Origin: an uncultured Helicobacter sp.
Lineage (GTDB): Bacteria > Campylobacterota > Campylobacteria > Campylobacterales > UBA6016
Assembly (NCBI GenBank): GCA_964568395.1
Contig: CAZMPN010000003.1
Coordinates: 34,482 to 98,481, forward strand
DNA length: 64,000 nucleotides
Reading direction: 5' to 3'
Shown here: in pieces, positions 33,581 to 52,210 of the stretch
How the letters are laid out: each line of letters opens with the position of its first letter
Position numbering within the stretch: the first letter of the stretch is position 1
Translations under genes and position numbers: made by a program
Notes under the pieces: generated by a model
The model's database searches: none
What the model saw: the letters and a program-made list of their open reading frames with translations, nothing else
What the model was told of the DNA's origin: nothing

Positions 33581-34390
33581 TTAATGTTTGTTTAGCAGAT
33601 CATACTTGCTTGGCATTTTAGGCTGTTTTAGCTGTTCTTCTTTTGCGGCAGCTTGTTGCTTTTTTTGTTGTTTCTCGATTTTCTCTTGTGCGTGTATATC
33701 CACCAGCACCTTTAGCTGTTTTGGATGCTCGCCTAGAAACTCAACCTTGCCGGTTTCTACATTGTATAGAGCTCCCACTATTTTTACTTTGCCTTCAAGT
33801 ACCATTTCCCTGACTATCGGGCTTTTTTTAAGTATATTGGCCACCTGCTCCCATACGTTTTCGACTATCGCCTTATTAATCCATTCATCCGCATTATGTC
33901 CAGCATGAGCCGCCTTTACCCTTGTGACGGCGGGGACTATAGGCGCTACCAGCTTCGGAATGGAACCGCCGACATGCTCCCCTTTCGCAACGGCTGTCAC
34001 TGCACCGCATTTTGTATGCCCCATCACGACAACCAGTCTGGTGCCAAGATGCTCGGTGCCGTACTCGATGGTACCTATTTCGTCCGTCGACGATACATTC
34101 CCGGCGTTTCTGACGATAAACAGATCCCCAAACCCACTGTCAAACAACAGCTCCGGCGGAACCCTGCTGTCGGAGCATGAGTTTATCGTAACAAACGGAT
34201 GCTGCCCTTTTGATGTCTCCTGTAGTCTCGTCGCATCAGAATTTGGCCTGATCGATTTACCGCTTACAAAACGCTCATTACCCTCTTTTAGCATTTTTAT
34301 GGCTTCGTCAGGGCTCACAGAACCAGCAGCGGTTCCGCTGGCGGACAGCATAATAGATGCCGCGCATACTATCAATACTTTTTTAAGCAT
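33581..34390 (-). CDS. Beta-class carbonic anhydrase with signal peptide
   Basis: CSDSRV, VRNAGN, HTKCGA Zn ligands. Start moved to the ATG at 34390 (SD GGGAG), giving MLKKVLIVCAASIMLSASG. Confidence 0.88.
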   Translation of the reverse strand: MLKKVLIVCAASIMLSASGTAAGSVSPDEAIKMLKEGNERFVSGKSIRPNSDATRLQETSKGQHPFVTINSCSDSRVPPELLFDSGFGDLFIVRNAGNVSSTDEIGTIEYGTEHLGTRLVVVMGHTKCGAVTAVAKGEHVGGSIPKLVAPIVPAVTRVKAAHAGHNADEWINKAIVENVWEQVANILKKSPIVREMVLEGKVKIVGALYNVETGKVEFLGEHPKQLKVLVDIHAQEKIEKQQKKQQAAAKEEQLKQPKMPSKYDLLNKH

Positions 34391-34518
34391 GAACTCTCCC
34401 TTTCTATATTTTTTCAAACATTGCAATATATACAAAACGAACAAAAATTATAAAATAAATAATCAAGCCTATATACGCAATAAAACCACCAAATGCAATC
34501 TATCCACCCTCTTCTCTT

Positions 34519-34911
34519 TTATTTTTCAACCTTCCTAAGAACGTCCAAAAACGCATCCGGCTTTGCCGCGCCGACAAACTGTCTACCTATCTTATTCCCG
34601 GAAGCGTCTATGAAATATATGGTAGGAGTACCGAACGCCCTAAAGCCGTCAGGGGTTTTGTCTTTTTTTATATCTATTTCCACCGGAACGAACCTACCGT
34701 CAATTTCGGAGATAACATCGGCGTTTTTTAAAACGACGTACTTCATATACTCGCACATATTGCAGCCATCCTGCGTCAGCATCAACATTACAATCTTCTG
34801 ACTTTTGGCGGCCTCTTTTTTGGCATCGTCGTAAGATTTGGCCCAAATGAACGCAAAAAGATTTAACGAAAAAACCAATAGCAAGCTAAACAATACCCTC
34901 ATAGTAGACAT
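34519..34911 (-). CDS. Periplasmic thioredoxin-fold protein (SoxW/DsbD-gamma-like)
   Basis: Signal peptide; CNMC; FGTPTIYF cis-Pro loop. True start may be the ATG at 34902, given SD spacing. Confidence 0.82.
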   Translation of the reverse strand: MSTMRVLFSLLLVFSLNLFAFIWAKSYDDAKKEAAKSQKIVMLMLTQDGCNMCEYMKYVVLKNADVISEIDGRFVPVEIDIKKDKTPDGFRAFGTPTIYFIDASGNKIGRQFVGAAKPDAFLDVLRKVEK

Positions 34912-34920
34912 ACTCCTTGG

Positions 34921-35649
34921 TTAATTTGAAAATATGGCGGCAATCTTACCGAGACCGCCTGTAGCTATCGCGAAGCCGAGTATGATTAGCATACCTCCGG
35001 CGATAATCTCTATAGCCCTGAAGTATCTTTTGACTCCGTTAAGAAAATGCAGCATAAAGCTAGTAAGAACAGCCGTCAATAAAAACGGAATCGCAAGCCC
35101 GGCGGCATAAACTATCAAAAGCGACACGGATGTAGACGGATTTTCGGCCGCCTTAAATACTATGGCCGCAAATATAGGGCCTACGCACGGAGTCCATCCA
35201 AGCGCAAACGACAGACCGAGAACAAAAGGCGCAAAGAAGGTTTTGCTCTTCACGGAGCCAAAATTCGCCCTTTGTTCAAAGTTTAGAAAACGAATACCTA
35301 TGACGCCGGTCATATGCAATCCAAAAAGAACGATAATACCCCCGGCCAGCCAGCTAATCCATTCATAATTGAAGATATTGCCGATCAATTCGGCCATCGC
35401 AACGCCTAGAAGCACAAATACGACGCCAAACCCTAAGACAAACATCAAAGCGGCGTAAAAGATTTTCAGCCTCTCCTTTGCCCCAATCTCTTCGCCGTTA
35501 GCCAGGCGTTTTACCGATATGCCGGATATATACGATATATAGGCCGGTATCAGCGGCAACACGCAAGGGCTTACAAAAGTAAGCACCCCCGCTATAAAAC
35601 TTACAAGAAAAGGCATGCTCTGAAATAGGCCAGATAGATATAGTTCCAT
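34921..35649 (-). CDS. ccdA: CcdA-type membrane electron transporter
   Basis: SPCVLPLIP and WTPCVGP motifs; about six TM segments. Confidence 0.9.
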   Translation of the reverse strand: MELYLSGLFQSMPFLVSFIAGVLTFVSPCVLPLIPAYISYISGISVKRLANGEEIGAKERLKIFYAALMFVLGFGVVFVLLGVAMAELIGNIFNYEWISWLAGGIIVLFGLHMTGVIGIRFLNFEQRANFGSVKSKTFFAPFVLGLSFALGWTPCVGPIFAAIVFKAAENPSTSVSLLIVYAAGLAIPFLLTAVLTSFMLHFLNGVKRYFRAIEIIAGGMLIILGFAIATGGLGKIAAIFSN

Positions 35650-35658
35650 ATTGGCTCG

Positions 35659-36132
35659 CTATTTTTTCAATATCATCGTGCCGCTTCCGGTCTCTACCGG
35701 GTAGCCTTCTTCTATCCAAGCCTTAAACCCGCCTTGCAGCGACTTGGCGTTTTTATATCCGAGTTTCCTCAACGTATCTGCGGCCATGATGGCCCTAGGA
35801 CCGCTTCTGCAGTATGTAACTATCGCAACATTCTTATCTTTTAGTTTTTTAGGTATATCGAACTCTATATTCCCTCTGGTGGAAGCTATATTTTCGCCGC
35901 TAACGGAGCTTAGTATCTCACCCTCCGCCCTTTGATCCGCCTCTCTGGCGTCGAACATAACGATAGGCATATCTTTATCAAGCATGGCTTTTAGTTCTTT
36001 TGCCGATATTTCGTTGCCTCTTTTGGCTTCGTCAAGCATTTTTTGGAACTCTGGCGAAAAGGCCGAAGCCCCAAACAAATTCGAGACGACAAAACCACAG
36101 GAGACCGCCAATAGAAACAATGACTTTTTCAT
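35659..36132 (-). CDS. Exported rhodanese-domain protein
   Basis: Signal peptide; DARE; active-site loop YCRSGPR; LQGGFKAW. Confidence 0.88.
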   Translation of the reverse strand: MKKSLFLLAVSCGFVVSNLFGASAFSPEFQKMLDEAKRGNEISAKELKAMLDKDMPIVMFDAREADQRAEGEILSSVSGENIASTRGNIEFDIPKKLKDKNVAIVTYCRSGPRAIMAADTLRKLGYKNAKSLQGGFKAWIEEGYPVETGSGTMILKK

Positions 36133-36213
36133 AACTTTTCCTTTATAAATTTGGAGTTTATCCCGCTTTTCGCGGTAGCTTTTGCCCTACTTTTGGAATA
36201 TGGCTATGCTATT

Positions 36214-36219
36214 ATTATA
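36214..36219 (-). promoter_or_regulatory. -10 box (TATAAT) for the rhodanese-ccdA-thioredoxin operon
   Basis: ATTATA on the + strand, 81 nt upstream of the ATG at 36132. Confidence 0.4.
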
Positions 36220-36266
36220 AATAGCGGAGCATTTGCGATTCTTATGCTGCTATTTATTTAACTTAT

Positions 36267-36296
36267 TAGTTATTTAGCTATTTGACTAAATAACTA
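36267..36296. promoter_or_regulatory. Perfect 11-8-11 inverted repeat, candidate ArsR operator
   Basis: TAGTTATTTAG-CTATTTGA-CTAAATAACTA, overlapping the -35 box of the arsR-family gene. Confidence 0.7.
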
Positions 36297-36310
36297 TCGA
36301 CAGCTATAAT
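36282..36310 (+). promoter_or_regulatory. Sigma70 promoter TTGACT-17nt-TATAAT
   Basis: TTGACT at 36282-36287, TATAAT at 36305-36310, SD GAGG before the ATG at 36344. Confidence 0.7.
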
Positions 36311-36343
36311 AACCAAAACAAAACAACGTGTCAAGAGGTGTAG

Positions 36344-36700
36344 ATGGAACTAAATATGGAGCAGAAAGTAGCCGTTTTCAAGGCGCTCGGCAATAAAACA
36401 AGATTTTTGATGTTTAAGGCCATATTTACAAAGTCTGTTACATGCTCCATAGATGATAAAAAAGAGCATATAGACGAAGCGGAGGCGGAATCGATATGCG
36501 TGTCAACCATAGCCTCCTTGTTCGACTACTCGATGCCGACAATATCAAACCATCTAAAAGAGCTTCGGACTGCGGGGCTTATCACGATGGAGAAAAGAGG
36601 CAACAAGATCTACGTAGAAGCAAATCTCGATACAATCAAAGCGTTAAACGACTGTTTTACCGATCTAATAGCGCAGCTAGACGCCGCACGGCTCAAATAA
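36344..36700 (+). CDS. ArsR/SmtB family transcriptional regulator
   Basis: FKALGNKTR, ICVSTI, PTISNHLKELRTAGLI winged HTH; three Cys. Confidence 0.9.
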   Translation: MELNMEQKVAVFKALGNKTRFLMFKAIFTKSVTCSIDDKKEHIDEAEAESICVSTIASLFDYSMPTISNHLKELRTAGLITMEKRGNKIYVEANLDTIKALNDCFTDLIAQLDAARLK

Positions 36701-36735
36701 CAAATCAAGCCGTCACGCAATCTAAAACTTATTTT

Positions 36736-36846
36736 TTAGCCATCATCTCTTTTCTTTACAAAAAATCTGAGCGTAGCGAGCGGTATCGCGACGGCGGCTA
36801 TGACAAAAACGAACGCTATCAAAATAGCCTCCAAACCAACATCCAT
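36736..36846 (-). CDS. Unannotated 36-aa single-TM membrane peptide
   Basis: MDVGLEAILIAFVFVIAAVAIPLATLRFFVKKRDDG; SD GAAGGAG 10 nt upstream; follows fixH-like gene on the same strand. Confidence 0.65.
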   Translation of the reverse strand: MDVGLEAILIAFVFVIAAVAIPLATLRFFVKKRDDG

Positions 36847-36888
36847 CGATTAAAATCTCCTTCTAAATAAAATACGCAAAACAAATCG

Positions 36889-37389
36889 CTACCGTCTCGT
36901 CGCCCATCCTTCAAATCTTACATACTTCATAGCGTCGCCGACCTCTACCTTTATTGACGCTATCCATCTGCCCTCTTTGTCCAGATTGAACTTGGAGGAG
37001 CGGTATTCGCCGTTGTCGTACTTGAAATCCTTGATATCTATGTTAAATTTTGACGTGTCCGGCCTCGTGATATAGGCGCTAACATTGGCGTCGCCTACAT
37101 AGCCGCCTTTTTTATCCAATATTTTTAACAGCAGCTCATTCTCCCCTGCCGCAAACTTCTTGTCGTTGTCGACCAAAACCACAAATCTGCTATCGAACAA
37201 CTCTTCTTTGTTGATAATCTGGTCATATTTCTTTTCCAGATCTTGATAGCCCATATGATAGTCGTCGGCCATCTCTATCGGCGTCGCGATGGATATCGCC
37301 AATACGCTAAACAGACCTACCAAAAAAAGCGCGGACATAACGCTGAGCAAAACGATAATCGGCCTAGCGCCTGATTTTGAATTAGCCAT
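36889..37389 (-). CDS. FixH family protein
   Basis: N-terminal TM helix; P.EM.DDYH..YQDL...YD; TRPD..KF; GRW..I.V. Confidence 0.7.
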   Translation of the reverse strand: MANSKSGARPIIVLLSVMSALFLVGLFSVLAISIATPIEMADDYHMGYQDLEKKYDQIINKEELFDSRFVVLVDNDKKFAAGENELLLKILDKKGGYVGDANVSAYITRPDTSKFNIDIKDFKYDNGEYRSSKFNLDKEGRWIASIKVEVGDAMKYVRFEGWATRR

Positions 37390-50669: not shown

Positions 50670-51856
50670 CTTATTACTCCTGCGAAAACCTTTTCGAGTT
50701 TTGCTATTTCTTCTACATACTCTTTTTTATAGGTTATTGTTTTTATCGTCGAATCGAAATAGGCGTTTTTTGCCGCAAGATACTCAAACAACGACACGGC
50801 GCCATTCTCATAACCCTTTGCGGTCATATCGAACACGGACTTGTACAGCTCTTCGTTTGCGATGGAATTTTTTATCTTTTTTTCTAGCTCCACTACTCTT
50901 TGGCTCTCCATCTTCGCCATGATCGATAGTGTATCTTGCAGTACTTTTTGCTTTCTGTTCACGGCGTCCAGTCTGGCCCTAAGCGCAGCTATCTTGTTCT
51001 CGTTCTTGCCAGTTACGTTCAAAGGGAACGAAACACGAAAATCGACGCTTTTTTGTGTCGCCTCTTTGGTCTGTCCGACGCCAAACTCGACCCTGTCTAT
51101 CAGGGAGTACCTATAGCCGCCCATTTCGCCTTCTATCTCTTGTTTTTTCGCTTCCATCTCTTTTACCTGAAGCGACTCTTTACGCAATTCCTCAAGCCTT
51201 TCGCTAAGAGCCGGATAGAACTTGAACCCAAGGTCGCTGATCGTTATCTCGTCATGAGACAAAACCGCATGCGACAAGGCATGATGGAGCTCCTCTTTAA
51301 ACGCTGACGCCGAAGCTAAGTCAACCTTGCTTTGCATAAGTTCCGTCTCAAACCTCGCAAGCTCCATTTTCGAGATGCGTCCCGCATCGAACTTCTTTTT
51401 GGCAAGCTCAAAGGAACGCTTTGCGGCGGCCTCTTTTTGGGTGTATATATCCTCTTCCTCCGAGGCGAGCAGAAACAGCAGGTACGTTCTTTTTATTTCG
51501 CTTTTTATCGCCGTTTTTTGGAGCTCTTCGGAGATATAAAGACCCTTCTCTTTGGCTTCAAATCCTCTTTTTTCGCTTGCTATAATCCAAGGCATTCTGG
51601 TGGAAAAGCCGAGCATGGAGGAGGTTTCGCTCTGGTGGACGGATTCGTCCGTTTTTATCTTCCTCTTGCCAAACTCAAGAGTGAGAGGCTCAAAAGCGAG
51701 CGCCGCCGCTTTATCGTATTTTGCGGCGTTTCTTTCGCCCGCGATATCTATGACCGCCATATCGTTTTTATAGACTTCGTTTACAAACTCGTCAAACGTA
51801 TATACCGAAGCATAAGAATAGACCGCCCCAAGAGCGATCAGCAAGGTTTTTTTCAT
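50666..51856 (-). CDS. TolC-family outer-membrane factor (CzcC-like)
   Basis: Signal peptide; FDAGRIS..EL and YENGAVSLFEYL repeats. Confidence 0.82.
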   Translation of the reverse strand: MKKTLLIALGAVYSYASVYTFDEFVNEVYKNDMAVIDIAGERNAAKYDKAAALAFEPLTLEFGKRKIKTDESVHQSETSSMLGFSTRMPWIIASEKRGFEAKEKGLYISEELQKTAIKSEIKRTYLLFLLASEEEDIYTQKEAAAKRSFELAKKKFDAGRISKMELARFETELMQSKVDLASASAFKEELHHALSHAVLSHDEITISDLGFKFYPALSERLEELRKESLQVKEMEAKKQEIEGEMGGYRYSLIDRVEFGVGQTKEATQKSVDFRVSFPLNVTGKNENKIAALRARLDAVNRKQKVLQDTLSIMAKMESQRVVELEKKIKNSIANEELYKSVFDMTAKGYENGAVSLFEYLAAKNAYFDSTIKTITYKKEYVEEIAKLEKVFAGVIR

Positions 51857-52210
51857 TTAAATCCCCTGTCTTTCCAAGACTTTGCCGTTTCCGGCGTCCA
51901 CATATAGTCTGTATTTTTTGCCGTCGGCATCTTGCGCATACACTTGATACACAAGCTCTCTATGCAAATCAAGCAGCGATATGGTTGAAGCATTGAGCCC
52001 CTCTTTCGAAAGGGAGCGCTCCACGTCTTCTTTGGATATTTTCGCAAGAGAAGCGAGATATCTTTCACCCTCAAACTGTACCGTAGGATGGCTTCTATAT
52101 TTTGAAAGCGTATATTTTTGGTGCTTATCGGCAGGTATATCGATGGATGAATCCACGCCGGCAAACGCGCTCAGGCAAAGTAGCGTCAGCGCTAAAACAT
52201 ATCTTCTCAT
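51857..52210 (-). CDS. Secreted PepSY-domain protein
   Basis: SD AAGGAG; signal peptide; LVYQV..YVDAGNGKVL; its stop directly abuts the next ATG. Confidence 0.75.
   Translation of the reverse strand: MRRYVLALTLLCLSAFAGVDSSIDIPADKHQKYTLSKYRSHPTVQFEGERYLASLAKISKEDVERSLSKEGLNASTISLLDLHRELVYQVYAQDADGKKYRLYVDAGNGKVLERQGI

Follow-up and report, generated by a model that had tools for sequence, protein, structure and literature searches.

In Paracoccus pantotrophus, Hyphomicrobium denitrificans, and other Proteobacteria, the gene for the ArsR-type repressor SoxR adjoins genes encoding the CcdA-type protein SoxV and two periplasmic thioredoxins, SoxS and SoxW. SoxR is released when sulfane sulfur bridges two of its Cys residues, and the thioredoxin branch of the system keeps the cysteine of the periplasmic sulfur carrier SoxY active (PMC10451225; PMC12936845). 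The repressor has been reported to be confined to Proteobacteria and to be absent from Campylobacterota (PMC10451225). Here, we examine a locus in a 64,000-nucleotide stretch of DNA from an uncultured Helicobacter sp. (assembly GCA_964568395.1, contig CAZMPN010000003.1, positions 34,482 to 98,481; hereafter the window, within which all positions are counted), where the gene for a small ArsR/SmtB-family repressor lies divergent from genes encoding an exported rhodanese, a CcdA-type membrane protein, and an exported thioredoxin. Its closest known analogues are the SoxR–SoxSVW and YgaV–YgaP systems, and it is set apart from them by its sensor site and its phylum-specific distribution. We read the locus as an autoregulated thiol-based switch that would respond to sulfane sulfur and induce a periplasmic relay for sulfane-sulfur reduction or repair, a reading to which we give a probability of roughly 0.45. 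The underlying regulatory architecture, in which a repressor controls its own gene through an operator conserved among relatives and a rhodanese operon diverges from it, is very probably correct.

The likeness to the SoxR system lies in an ArsR-type repressor gene adjoining those for a CcdA homolog and a periplasmic thioredoxin. In contrast, the Cys pair of SoxR (C50 and C116, corresponding to C41 and C107 of SqrR) is not conserved in the window regulator, and the client of the SoxR module is SoxYZ, whereas that of the window system would be the rhodanese. The SoxR module is also linked to sox genes, whereas the window locus is not: the host encodes a SoxB scoring above its cut-off, but the soxB gene is found on contig C12 of the genome (1.88 Mb, 98% complete) and the window is part of contig C3; moreover, the operator sequences are unrelated. 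With YgaV–YgaP, which belongs to the BigR/SqrR/YgaV/HlyU group (cluster 4 of the ArsR sequence similarity network), the locus shares a small ArsR repressor, a rhodanese, a sulfurtransferase-rich neighborhood, and a palindrome. Persulfide-sensing ArsRs are described as co-localizing with rhodaneses (PMC10054925). Cluster-4 proteins differ in having a dithiol pair, with one Cys in α2 (ILC) and the other at the end of α5, whereas the window family carries C34, C52, and C104 together with an insertion of about 18 residues. Furthermore, the window rhodanese is exported and coupled to a CcdA–thioredoxin pair, unlike those of cluster-4 systems such as ygaV–ygaP.

The regulator (36344..36700, + strand) is a protein of 118 residues that exceeds the cut-offs of both Pfam HTH_5 (30.7 bits; cut-off 22) and NCBIfam HTH_metalloreg (59.1 bits; cut-off 55), both of them curated. 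No NCBIfam model fits it more specifically than this generic metalloregulator model. Its AlphaFold2 (AF2) model, with a predicted local distance difference test (pLDDT) score of 89.8, adopts the winged-helix ArsR fold, with helices at residues 5–15, 18–29, 45–57, 64–76, and 95–117 and a wing at 80–93; Foldseek searches with this model return generic ArsR folds, placing the protein within the ArsR/SmtB superfamily. The insertion of about 18 residues begins at C34, between α2 and α3, and is specific to the family. A word-indexed search recovered 14 relatives at 48–99% identity before an abrupt drop to generic ArsRs, and the closest regulators (P0002–P0006, 68–83% identical) come from Logan assemblies. 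When 1.84 billion representatives were searched exhaustively with a profile, only four clusters were recovered at E ≤ 1e-30. Among species-representative genomes, 155 relatives were confirmed, and 80 loci, carrying 79 family regulators, were examined; all 80 are from Campylobacterota, including Sulfurimonas, Sulfurovum, Sulfuricurvum, Arcobacter-type, and Sulfurospirillum members, and the nearest Atlas cluster is likewise mostly campylobacterotal. The regulator thus belongs to a compact and uncharacterized ArsR family that has no name and that, across these 80 loci, occurs in no phylum but Campylobacterota.

A first-pass annotation of the window had described a perfect 11-8-11 inverted repeat over a TTGACT-17-TATAAT promoter, and both elements are confirmed. 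The repeat, TAGTTATTTAG-CTATTTGA-CTAAATAACTA, occupies 36267–36296 with arms that are 100% complementary, and the arsR promoter-like site (36282..36310, + strand) matches the consensus at 11 of 12 positions, with its −35 element TTGACT (36282–36287) falling within the repeat and its −10 element TATAAT at 36305–36310. At up to three mismatches, TAGTTATTTAG-N8-CTAAATAACTA has a single match in the window, where 0.00 would be expected from 100 dinucleotide-preserving shuffles. Scanning the 1.88-Mb host genome for the palindrome, as that annotation had suggested, likewise returned one site, against none for a reversed-pattern control. The central part of the repeat, TATTTAG-N8-CTAAATA (36271–36292), is conserved in the family: with up to two mismatches it occurs in 70 of the 78 upstream regions of 200 nt that were compared, and 53 of these 70 sites are positioned between −64 and −66 relative to the ATG. 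In the relatives, an extended −10 element (TGgTATAAT) follows at a fixed spacing, and the inner 8 bp of the operator hold a −35-like TTTAAC or TTGACT. Of all 103 core matches in the 721 kb of DNA searched, about three quarters fall within 200-nt regions upstream of family regulators. Such recurrence of the core, at a constant spacing in front of 70 of the 78 related genes, is strong evidence from sequence conservation that it constitutes an autoregulatory operator. The annotation had also treated the ArsR, the palindrome, and the divergent operon as one regulatory unit, a view with which the conservation of both the operator and the ArsR–rhodanese pairing across the approximately 80 loci agrees. 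The regulon looks local to the locus, since counts of a relaxed operator (TWTTTAG-N8-CTAAAWA, one mismatch) in five Sulfurimonas-type genomes were not above the reversed-pattern control, and weak sites may exist elsewhere. One extra perfect core in genome G011 was rejected as a regulon site, as it sits within an open reading frame.

On the opposite strand, a candidate promoter for the rhodanese operon that the annotation had not listed lies at 36306..36334 (− strand) and consists of TTGACA (36334–36329), a 17-nt spacer, and TATTAT (36311–36306); its assignment is a consensus match only, at 11 of 12 positions. The −10 elements of the two divergent promoters overlap, and the operator would occupy approximately +3 to +32 of the transcript predicted from the − strand. 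A second perfect palindrome, ATAAATAGC-N23-GCTATTTAT (36217–36257; 9-nt arms, 100% complementary), has half-sites resembling the operator half-site TAAATARC and brackets an alternative − strand TATAAT (36219–36214) roughly 80 nt ahead of the start of the rhodanese gene. The 181 nt comprising the putative leader and first codons (36120–36300, − strand) fold at −40.7 kcal/mol (z −4.9 versus shuffles), driven mainly by the palindromes. Such stable folding would suit an entirely different role for the operator, as a hairpin at the 5′ end of the mRNA for the rhodanese; a related possibility is that the adjacency of ccdA–trx is incidental and serves cytochrome c maturation, with the ArsR regulating only itself, and CcdA–thioredoxin pairs are indeed housekeeping in nine of ten relatives. 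We consider this pair of explanations exceedingly improbable. The operator keeps a constant distance from the −10 element and ATG of arsR but not from the rhodanese gene, and Rfam gives no matches in 34300–37000. Likewise, the 9-nt gene spacing indicates one operon, a housekeeping ccdA–trx copy already exists elsewhere in the genome, and in other genera DsbD–thioredoxin has come to occupy this slot through a separate recruitment.

The divergent operon comprises a Sud-like, single-domain rhodanese (35659..36132; Pfam Rhodanese, 59.4 bits), a CcdA-type membrane thiol-disulfide electron transporter (34921..35649; DsbD_TM, PF02683, 49.4 bits, cut-off 27.1), and a thioredoxin-fold protein resembling the γ domain of DsbD (34519..34911; Thioredoxin_2, 46.3 bits; Thioredoxin_7, 42.5 bits), all on the − strand. 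The tight spacing noted in the annotation amounts to gaps of 9 nt between the three genes, and its exported rhodanese and CxxC thioredoxin both have Sec-type N-termini (signal peptides), the CxxC motif reading CNMC. The catalytic residue of the rhodanese, Cys108 in CRSGPR, is its single invariant Cys and is kept in 55 orthologs. Among structures in the Protein Data Bank (PDB), the rhodanese matches 6mxv (3.2e-29) and Sud of Wolinella succinogenes (1qxn; 2.6e-10), the catalytic Cys being aligned in the latter. Residues 8–12 of the window protein (LAVSC; residues 1–12 are encoded at 36097–36132) resemble a lipobox, the Cys of which occurs in only 2% of orthologs; by this motif, the window rhodanese might be lipid-anchored instead of soluble. 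CcdA is a homolog of the DsbD β domain with both P-C-x-x-P motifs (SPCVLP and TPCVGP), and the CxxC of the thioredoxin is invariant in 12 orthologs. The earlier comparison of this CcdA and thioredoxin with SoxV and SoxW holds, with DsbD found in Sulfurimonas-type loci and CcdA here.

One periplasmic rhodanese with a single domain is already known from a member of the Campylobacterota, namely Sud, the polysulfide-sulfur transferase of Wolinella, with which the window protein aligns over residues 26–145 with the Cys matched. The similarity is nevertheless low (E 2.6e-10), and Sud serves polysulfide reductase, whereas no psr gene is adjacent in the window; Sud is not known to be coupled to CcdA/thioredoxin or to an ArsR. 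The overall organization also resembles that of the Tso system. In work by Haft and Tolstoy from 2025, Tso reportedly stands for "three selenoprotein operon." TsoB is described in NCBIfam as a "rhodanese/DsbD fusion-like selenoprotein" and is paired with the ArsR-type TsoR (PMC13188914). TsoB shows the same order of rhodanese, DsbD-type membrane domain, and thioredoxin, and the three window proteins match positions 13–160, 185–359, and 456–571 of its model, respectively; the best NCBIfam matches of the thioredoxin are the C-terminal (γ) parts of DsbD and TsoB. TsoB is, however, one fused polypeptide with two selenocysteines (UxxxxU), whereas the window encodes three genes with Cys, none of which has an in-frame TGA. 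No longer, fused relatives of the rhodanese were found, in a search of weak evidential value. As judged by these comparisons, the window system is best regarded as an analogue of TsoB/TsoR, not as a member. In terms of DsbD, CcdA corresponds to the β domain and the exported thioredoxin to the γ domain; the α domain is missing, and the rhodanese takes its place, as does the rhodanese domain in TsoB. This shared domain order would make the rhodanese the terminal acceptor of the relay.

Conservation of gene neighborhoods bears on what the family controls. A divergent gene is present on the available DNA for 70 of the 79 regulators, and 58 of the 79 are divergent from a rhodanese-domain gene; 47 of these 58 rhodaneses are of the exported Sud-like type, and the rest are exported tandem rhodaneses or MerT–rhodanese fusions. 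DsrE-like genes, in an exported form of about 155 residues or a cytoplasmic form of 117 residues, occur at 31 of the 79 regulators, DUF302 genes at 12, DsbD or CcdA genes at 10, genes for DsbD-γ-like thioredoxins at 8, and S-adenosylmethionine (SAM) methyltransferase genes, some of them ArsM/TPMT-like with scores below cut-off, also at 8; outer-membrane porin genes occur at a few. In total, 67 of 79 adjoin at least one of these types (rhodanese, DsrE-like, DUF302, DsbD/CcdA, thioredoxin, or methyltransferase). Co-localization with rhodaneses and other sulfurtransferases, a trait of cluster 4, is therefore found in this family as well. Giedroc and co-workers have used such neighborhood logic to interpret ArsR clusters (PMC10054925). 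By the same logic, the regulon of this family is one of sulfur trafficking. In Sulfurimonas-type loci, a full-length DsbD (528.6 bits; cut-off 330) and a thioredoxin are encoded behind the rhodanese, an arrangement seen in 12 loci. A membrane supplier of reductant has therefore joined the regulon more than once in non-orthologous forms, as DsbD with thioredoxin and as CcdA with thioredoxin, and this repeated recruitment points to functional coupling rather than accident. At loci L105 and L106, a 65%-identical regulator adjoins genes for CcdA and thioredoxin alone, which likewise favors coupling.

With these features, a mechanism can be proposed. The ArsR-family dimer would bind the palindrome at 36267–36296, occluding the −35 element of its own promoter, and the bound dimer would also block the divergent promoter or the early transcript of the rhodanese–ccdA–trx operon. 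A cytoplasmic thiol-reactive signal, most likely sulfane sulfur in the form of a persulfide or polysulfide, would modify C34, C52, and C104, whereupon the repressor would leave the DNA. CcdA would then carry electrons across the membrane from cytoplasmic thioredoxin and reduce the exported γ-domain-like thioredoxin, the CNMC motif of which would in turn reduce the persulfide or oxidized form of Cys108 on the Sud-like periplasmic rhodanese. Two outcomes are conceivable: the carried sulfane sulfur might be freed as sulfide, as by a thioredoxin-driven persulfide or polysulfide reductase, or Cys108 might be rescued from over-sulfuration, a mixed disulfide, or sulfenylation. That the repressor binds DNA, what its effector is, that electrons run toward the rhodanese, and what substrate is used are all matters of inference; the relay function is reasoned from the domain identities, the recurrent recruitment, and the fused analogue TsoB. 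Sulfane sulfur is favored as the effector because of the regulon content and the precedents of SoxR and YgaV. A more ambitious form of the proposal, in which the family would be a hitherto unrecognized, Campylobacterota-specific class of ArsR sensors whose tri-cysteine sulfane-sulfur site, standing in for the BigR/SqrR dithiol, governs a rhodanese-terminated, DsbD-like relay that acts in the periplasm as a thioredoxin-driven reductase of persulfides or polysulfides, a split and non-selenium counterpart of TsoB, remains tentative and is on balance doubtful.

The three Cys residues described earlier in the regulator, including that in LNDCF, are confirmed as C34, C52, and C104, and they are invariant in 78 of the 79 family members, paralogs included; Asp38 is nearly invariant. 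In the AF2 model, C34 lies on a short strand (32–35), C52 in α3 (45–57), and C104 in the middle of α5 (95–117; LNDCF). Escherichia coli YgaV, which PMC10054925 names as a cluster-4 member, was used as the reference for this cluster in alignment and hhalign comparisons. Its α2 Cys (LILC) aligns with K25 of the regulator and its C-terminal Cys (YCP) with approximately A110, six residues past C104; YgaV lacks the insertion beginning at C34, and an alignment with HlyU yields the same offsets. In a PDB profile search, the best match was the CadC-like Lmo1102 (2.7e-6), HlyU followed at 1.6e-4, and neither BigR nor SqrR appeared at E ≤ 10; Foldseek ranked SqrR 39–49 and YgaV (3cuo) 48. The annotation's assumption of BigR/SqrR-type sensing through a Cys of the C-terminal helix is not supported, because the sensing Cys residues of cluster 4 align with K25 and approximately A110, and the implied kinship fails too, in that SqrR, BigR, and YgaV are not nearest by sequence or by fold. 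Its broader proposal, a periplasmic relay under persulfide control, fares better in one half than in the other: the sulfur-trafficking neighborhood of rhodanese, DsrE-like, and DUF302 genes speaks for the relay, whereas the sensor Cys residues are not of the BigR/SqrR type, so that a persulfide, a metalloid, and an oxidant are all candidate effectors. The sensor site is therefore new, and homology does not reveal its chemistry.

Several observations weigh against sulfane sulfur as the signal, or against the module as we read it. The sensing Cys residues differ from those of known persulfide-sensing ArsRs, whereas C52 occupies the classical metal(loid) ligand position of ArsR/SmtB/CadC proteins, and three invariant Cys residues together with Asp38 resemble the ligands of a bound metal, metalloid, or cluster. 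Paralogs within the family adjoin genes for ArsM-like methyltransferases and MerT–rhodanese fusions, and the module is missing from three SoxB-positive relatives. The resemblance to TsoB is numerically faint, the rhodanese, CcdA, and thioredoxin scoring 26.8, 39.1, and 31.8 bits against a cut-off of 805 (NF045694) and the regulator scoring 31.6 against 115 for TsoR (NF045707).

Several of these points would fit a sensor of soft metals or metalloids, which we regard as rather unlikely. Here, a trigonal thiolate site built from C34, C52, C104, and perhaps D38 would bind As(III)/Sb(III), Se(IV)/Te(IV), Hg(II), Cd(II), or Pb(II), and the relay would detoxify or traffic the element in the periplasm, for example as thio- or seleno-adducts. 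The recognition helix has a conserved His, and C52 precedes it by 18 residues, with offsets matching C61 of SmtB; in Lmo1102, the residue aligned with C52 is the leading Cys of the CVC motif, and we take C52 to be equivalent to C32 of R773 ArsR. Three invariant Cys residues are also typical of the S3 sites that have arisen independently in As(III)-sensing ArsRs (PMC10054925). The ArsM/TPMT-like methyltransferases beside the paralogs reach 180 bits, which is nonetheless under the family cut-off (263 for arsenite methyltransferase), and there are weak matches to TsoR/TsoB of the selenoprotein operon, ExtH, and YedF. In contrast, the regulator does not fit a canonical As(III) ArsR of the R773 type, as the motif reads C52-V-S instead of CVC and α3 contains no second or third Cys. 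Moreover, no Acr3, ArsB, ArsC, MerA, metal transporter, or arsenic/metal efflux gene was found among the annotated neighbors of the 80 loci, at which the dominant partners are sulfur carriers. Rhodanese loops of seven residues are of the arsenate-reductase/phosphatase type and those of six residues of the sulfurtransferase type; that of the window protein is a six-residue C-X4-R, which by sequence places it in the Sud/GlpE/PspE sulfurtransferase class. A hybrid As/S signal is a possible variant, as the sqr operon of Synechocystis is reported to be induced by both arsenite and sulfide (cited in PMC6620896).

The paralogous three-Cys ArsRs mentioned above lie at L009:7752-9185, L031, L063, L075, L081, and L061:6389-8717. 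They adjoin genes for a MerT–rhodanese fusion (306 residues) and a two-domain ArsM/TPMT-like methyltransferase (457 residues), with an operator of the form TGTTTAGC-N6-GCTAAATT about 128 nt upstream, and these loci may represent a metalloid or sulfide methylation module.

More distant ArsRs (P0034, P0036, P0041, P0042, P0044, P0046, and P0048) carry a Cys-rich insertion between α2 and α3, with motifs such as G-C-H-I-D-E-C ... C ... C-V. In these outgroup proteins, the insertion holds three or four Cys residues and C104 is missing; C52 is common to all 15 aligned sequences, and C34 is present in several of the outgroup. We know of no characterized member with such an insertion, and these proteins could be a cofactor- or metal-binding subclass. 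Because they share the insertion and C52 but lack C104, the alignment hints that C34 is near C52 and that C104 has taken over from ligands since lost. In NsrR, the [4Fe-4S] cluster is held by three Cys residues and an Asp, a match that raises the idea of an Fe–S cluster or a structural Zn on the three Cys residues and Asp38, through which redox state, sulfide, or iron would be sensed. The Cys-rich insertions of P0034, P0041, P0042, P0036, and P0048 (C-x-I/L-D-E-C ... C ... CV) would agree with a cofactor. However, the extra insertion Cys residues have been lost in the window family, the idea is purely pattern-based, and no Fe–S protein of the ArsR family is known to us, making such a cofactor very improbable.

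The window version of the locus is a mosaic. At E ≤ 1e-10, neither the regulator nor the Sud-like rhodanese is present in any of ten further genomes from its GTDB family (eight of them of the same genus), whereas a ccdA–trx pair is present in nine of these ten. The host genome itself has a second such pair (G000:C4:51237-52373, equivalent to L104:7238-8373; ccdA at 51237-51956), situated among genes for an M48 peptidase, CheB, CheR, and EamA on one side and an amidohydrolase and MlaE on the other. The window CcdA is 79% identical to this housekeeping copy and 58% to the CcdA of locus L105, while the window thioredoxin is 64% identical to that of L105 and 45% to the housekeeping one, a pattern suggesting that only ccdA was duplicated or underwent gene conversion. 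In a CcdA tree, the window copy falls nearest to the second copy of its own genome, on a long branch, but five of the seven inner branches are open, so that duplication and transfer cannot be told apart from the tree. GC content gives no island signature at the locus. The host genome has seven rhodanese-domain matches, and all carriers among the 80 loci are sulfur-cycling Campylobacterota; since three SoxB-positive relatives are without the module, it would be an accessory and not a part of the core Sox system. Transcriptome papers on Sulfurovum report a rhodanese induced on S0, the orthology of which to the window rhodanese could not be established.

Loci L105 (4732-6345) and L106 (JGI metagenome contigs Ga0207433_10000494 and Ga0123519_10026703) encode a 65%-identical three-Cys ArsR divergent from a CcdA–thioredoxin pair and no rhodanese. 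This arrangement, like the descent of the window CcdA as a diverged copy of housekeeping ccdA (79% identity), is what a general thiol-oxidation switch might look like, in which disulfides, peroxide, or HOCl would be sensed, the operon would repair single-Cys envelope proteins in the periplasm in the manner of DsbD–DsbG, and sulfur compounds would have no specific role. H2O2-sensing dithiol ArsRs such as RexT do exist (PMC8960804; PMC10054925), and DsbD-type systems are described as reducing sulfenic acids (PMC3322552). On the other hand, the partners of the family are sulfur carriers, among them cytoplasmic DsrE-like and DUF302 proteins that have no need of periplasmic repair, and peroxide-sensing ArsRs neighbor NADH oxidoreductases, not rhodaneses, according to PMC10054925. 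We consider the thiol-oxidation switch improbable. At L105 and L106, the operator is a different 8-8-8 palindrome, ATAACTAT-N8-ATAGTTAT, placed over the −35 element and followed by TGATATAAT. Synteny of the right flank of L105 with the window was rejected, as its histidine kinase and response regulator are 24% and 36% identical to those of the window and the next gene encodes an EngA-like GTPase, not a porin.

Sulfur-oxidizing Campylobacterota dominate vents, sulfidic groundwater, and redoxclines, and few sulfur-responsive regulators have been described in them. One, the two-component system SulRS, was described in 2026 (PMC12936845). With its phylum-specific distribution, conserved operator, and regulon of rhodanese, DsrE, and DsbD genes, the compact ArsR family described here is a testable candidate for a missing cytoplasmic sensor of sulfane sulfur or metalloids. 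Its sensor site, unlike that of every characterized ArsR, bears on the evolution of thiol-based specificity. Furthermore, the gene order mirrors TsoB and offers a tractable, Cys-only model for that uncharacterized selenoprotein system, as well as for thioredoxin-dependent rhodanese turnover outside the cytoplasm.

Downstream of the thioredoxin gene lies an exported β-carbonic-anhydrase-fold gene (33581..34444, − strand; Pfam Pro_CA, 146 bits). It is absent from all 80 related loci; no terminator-like site was found on the − strand between the two genes (34390–34519), and transcription of the operon may continue into it. β-Carbonic-anhydrase-fold COS and CS2 hydrolases release H2S, an activity that would suit a sulfur operon. 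Lastly, some rhodanese–DsrE operons of the family include outer-membrane channel genes (L055:4120-5418, L062, L065, and L043:1866-3152), which encode Alginate_exp-like (432 residues) or Porin_O_P-like (428 residues) proteins that may admit substrate.

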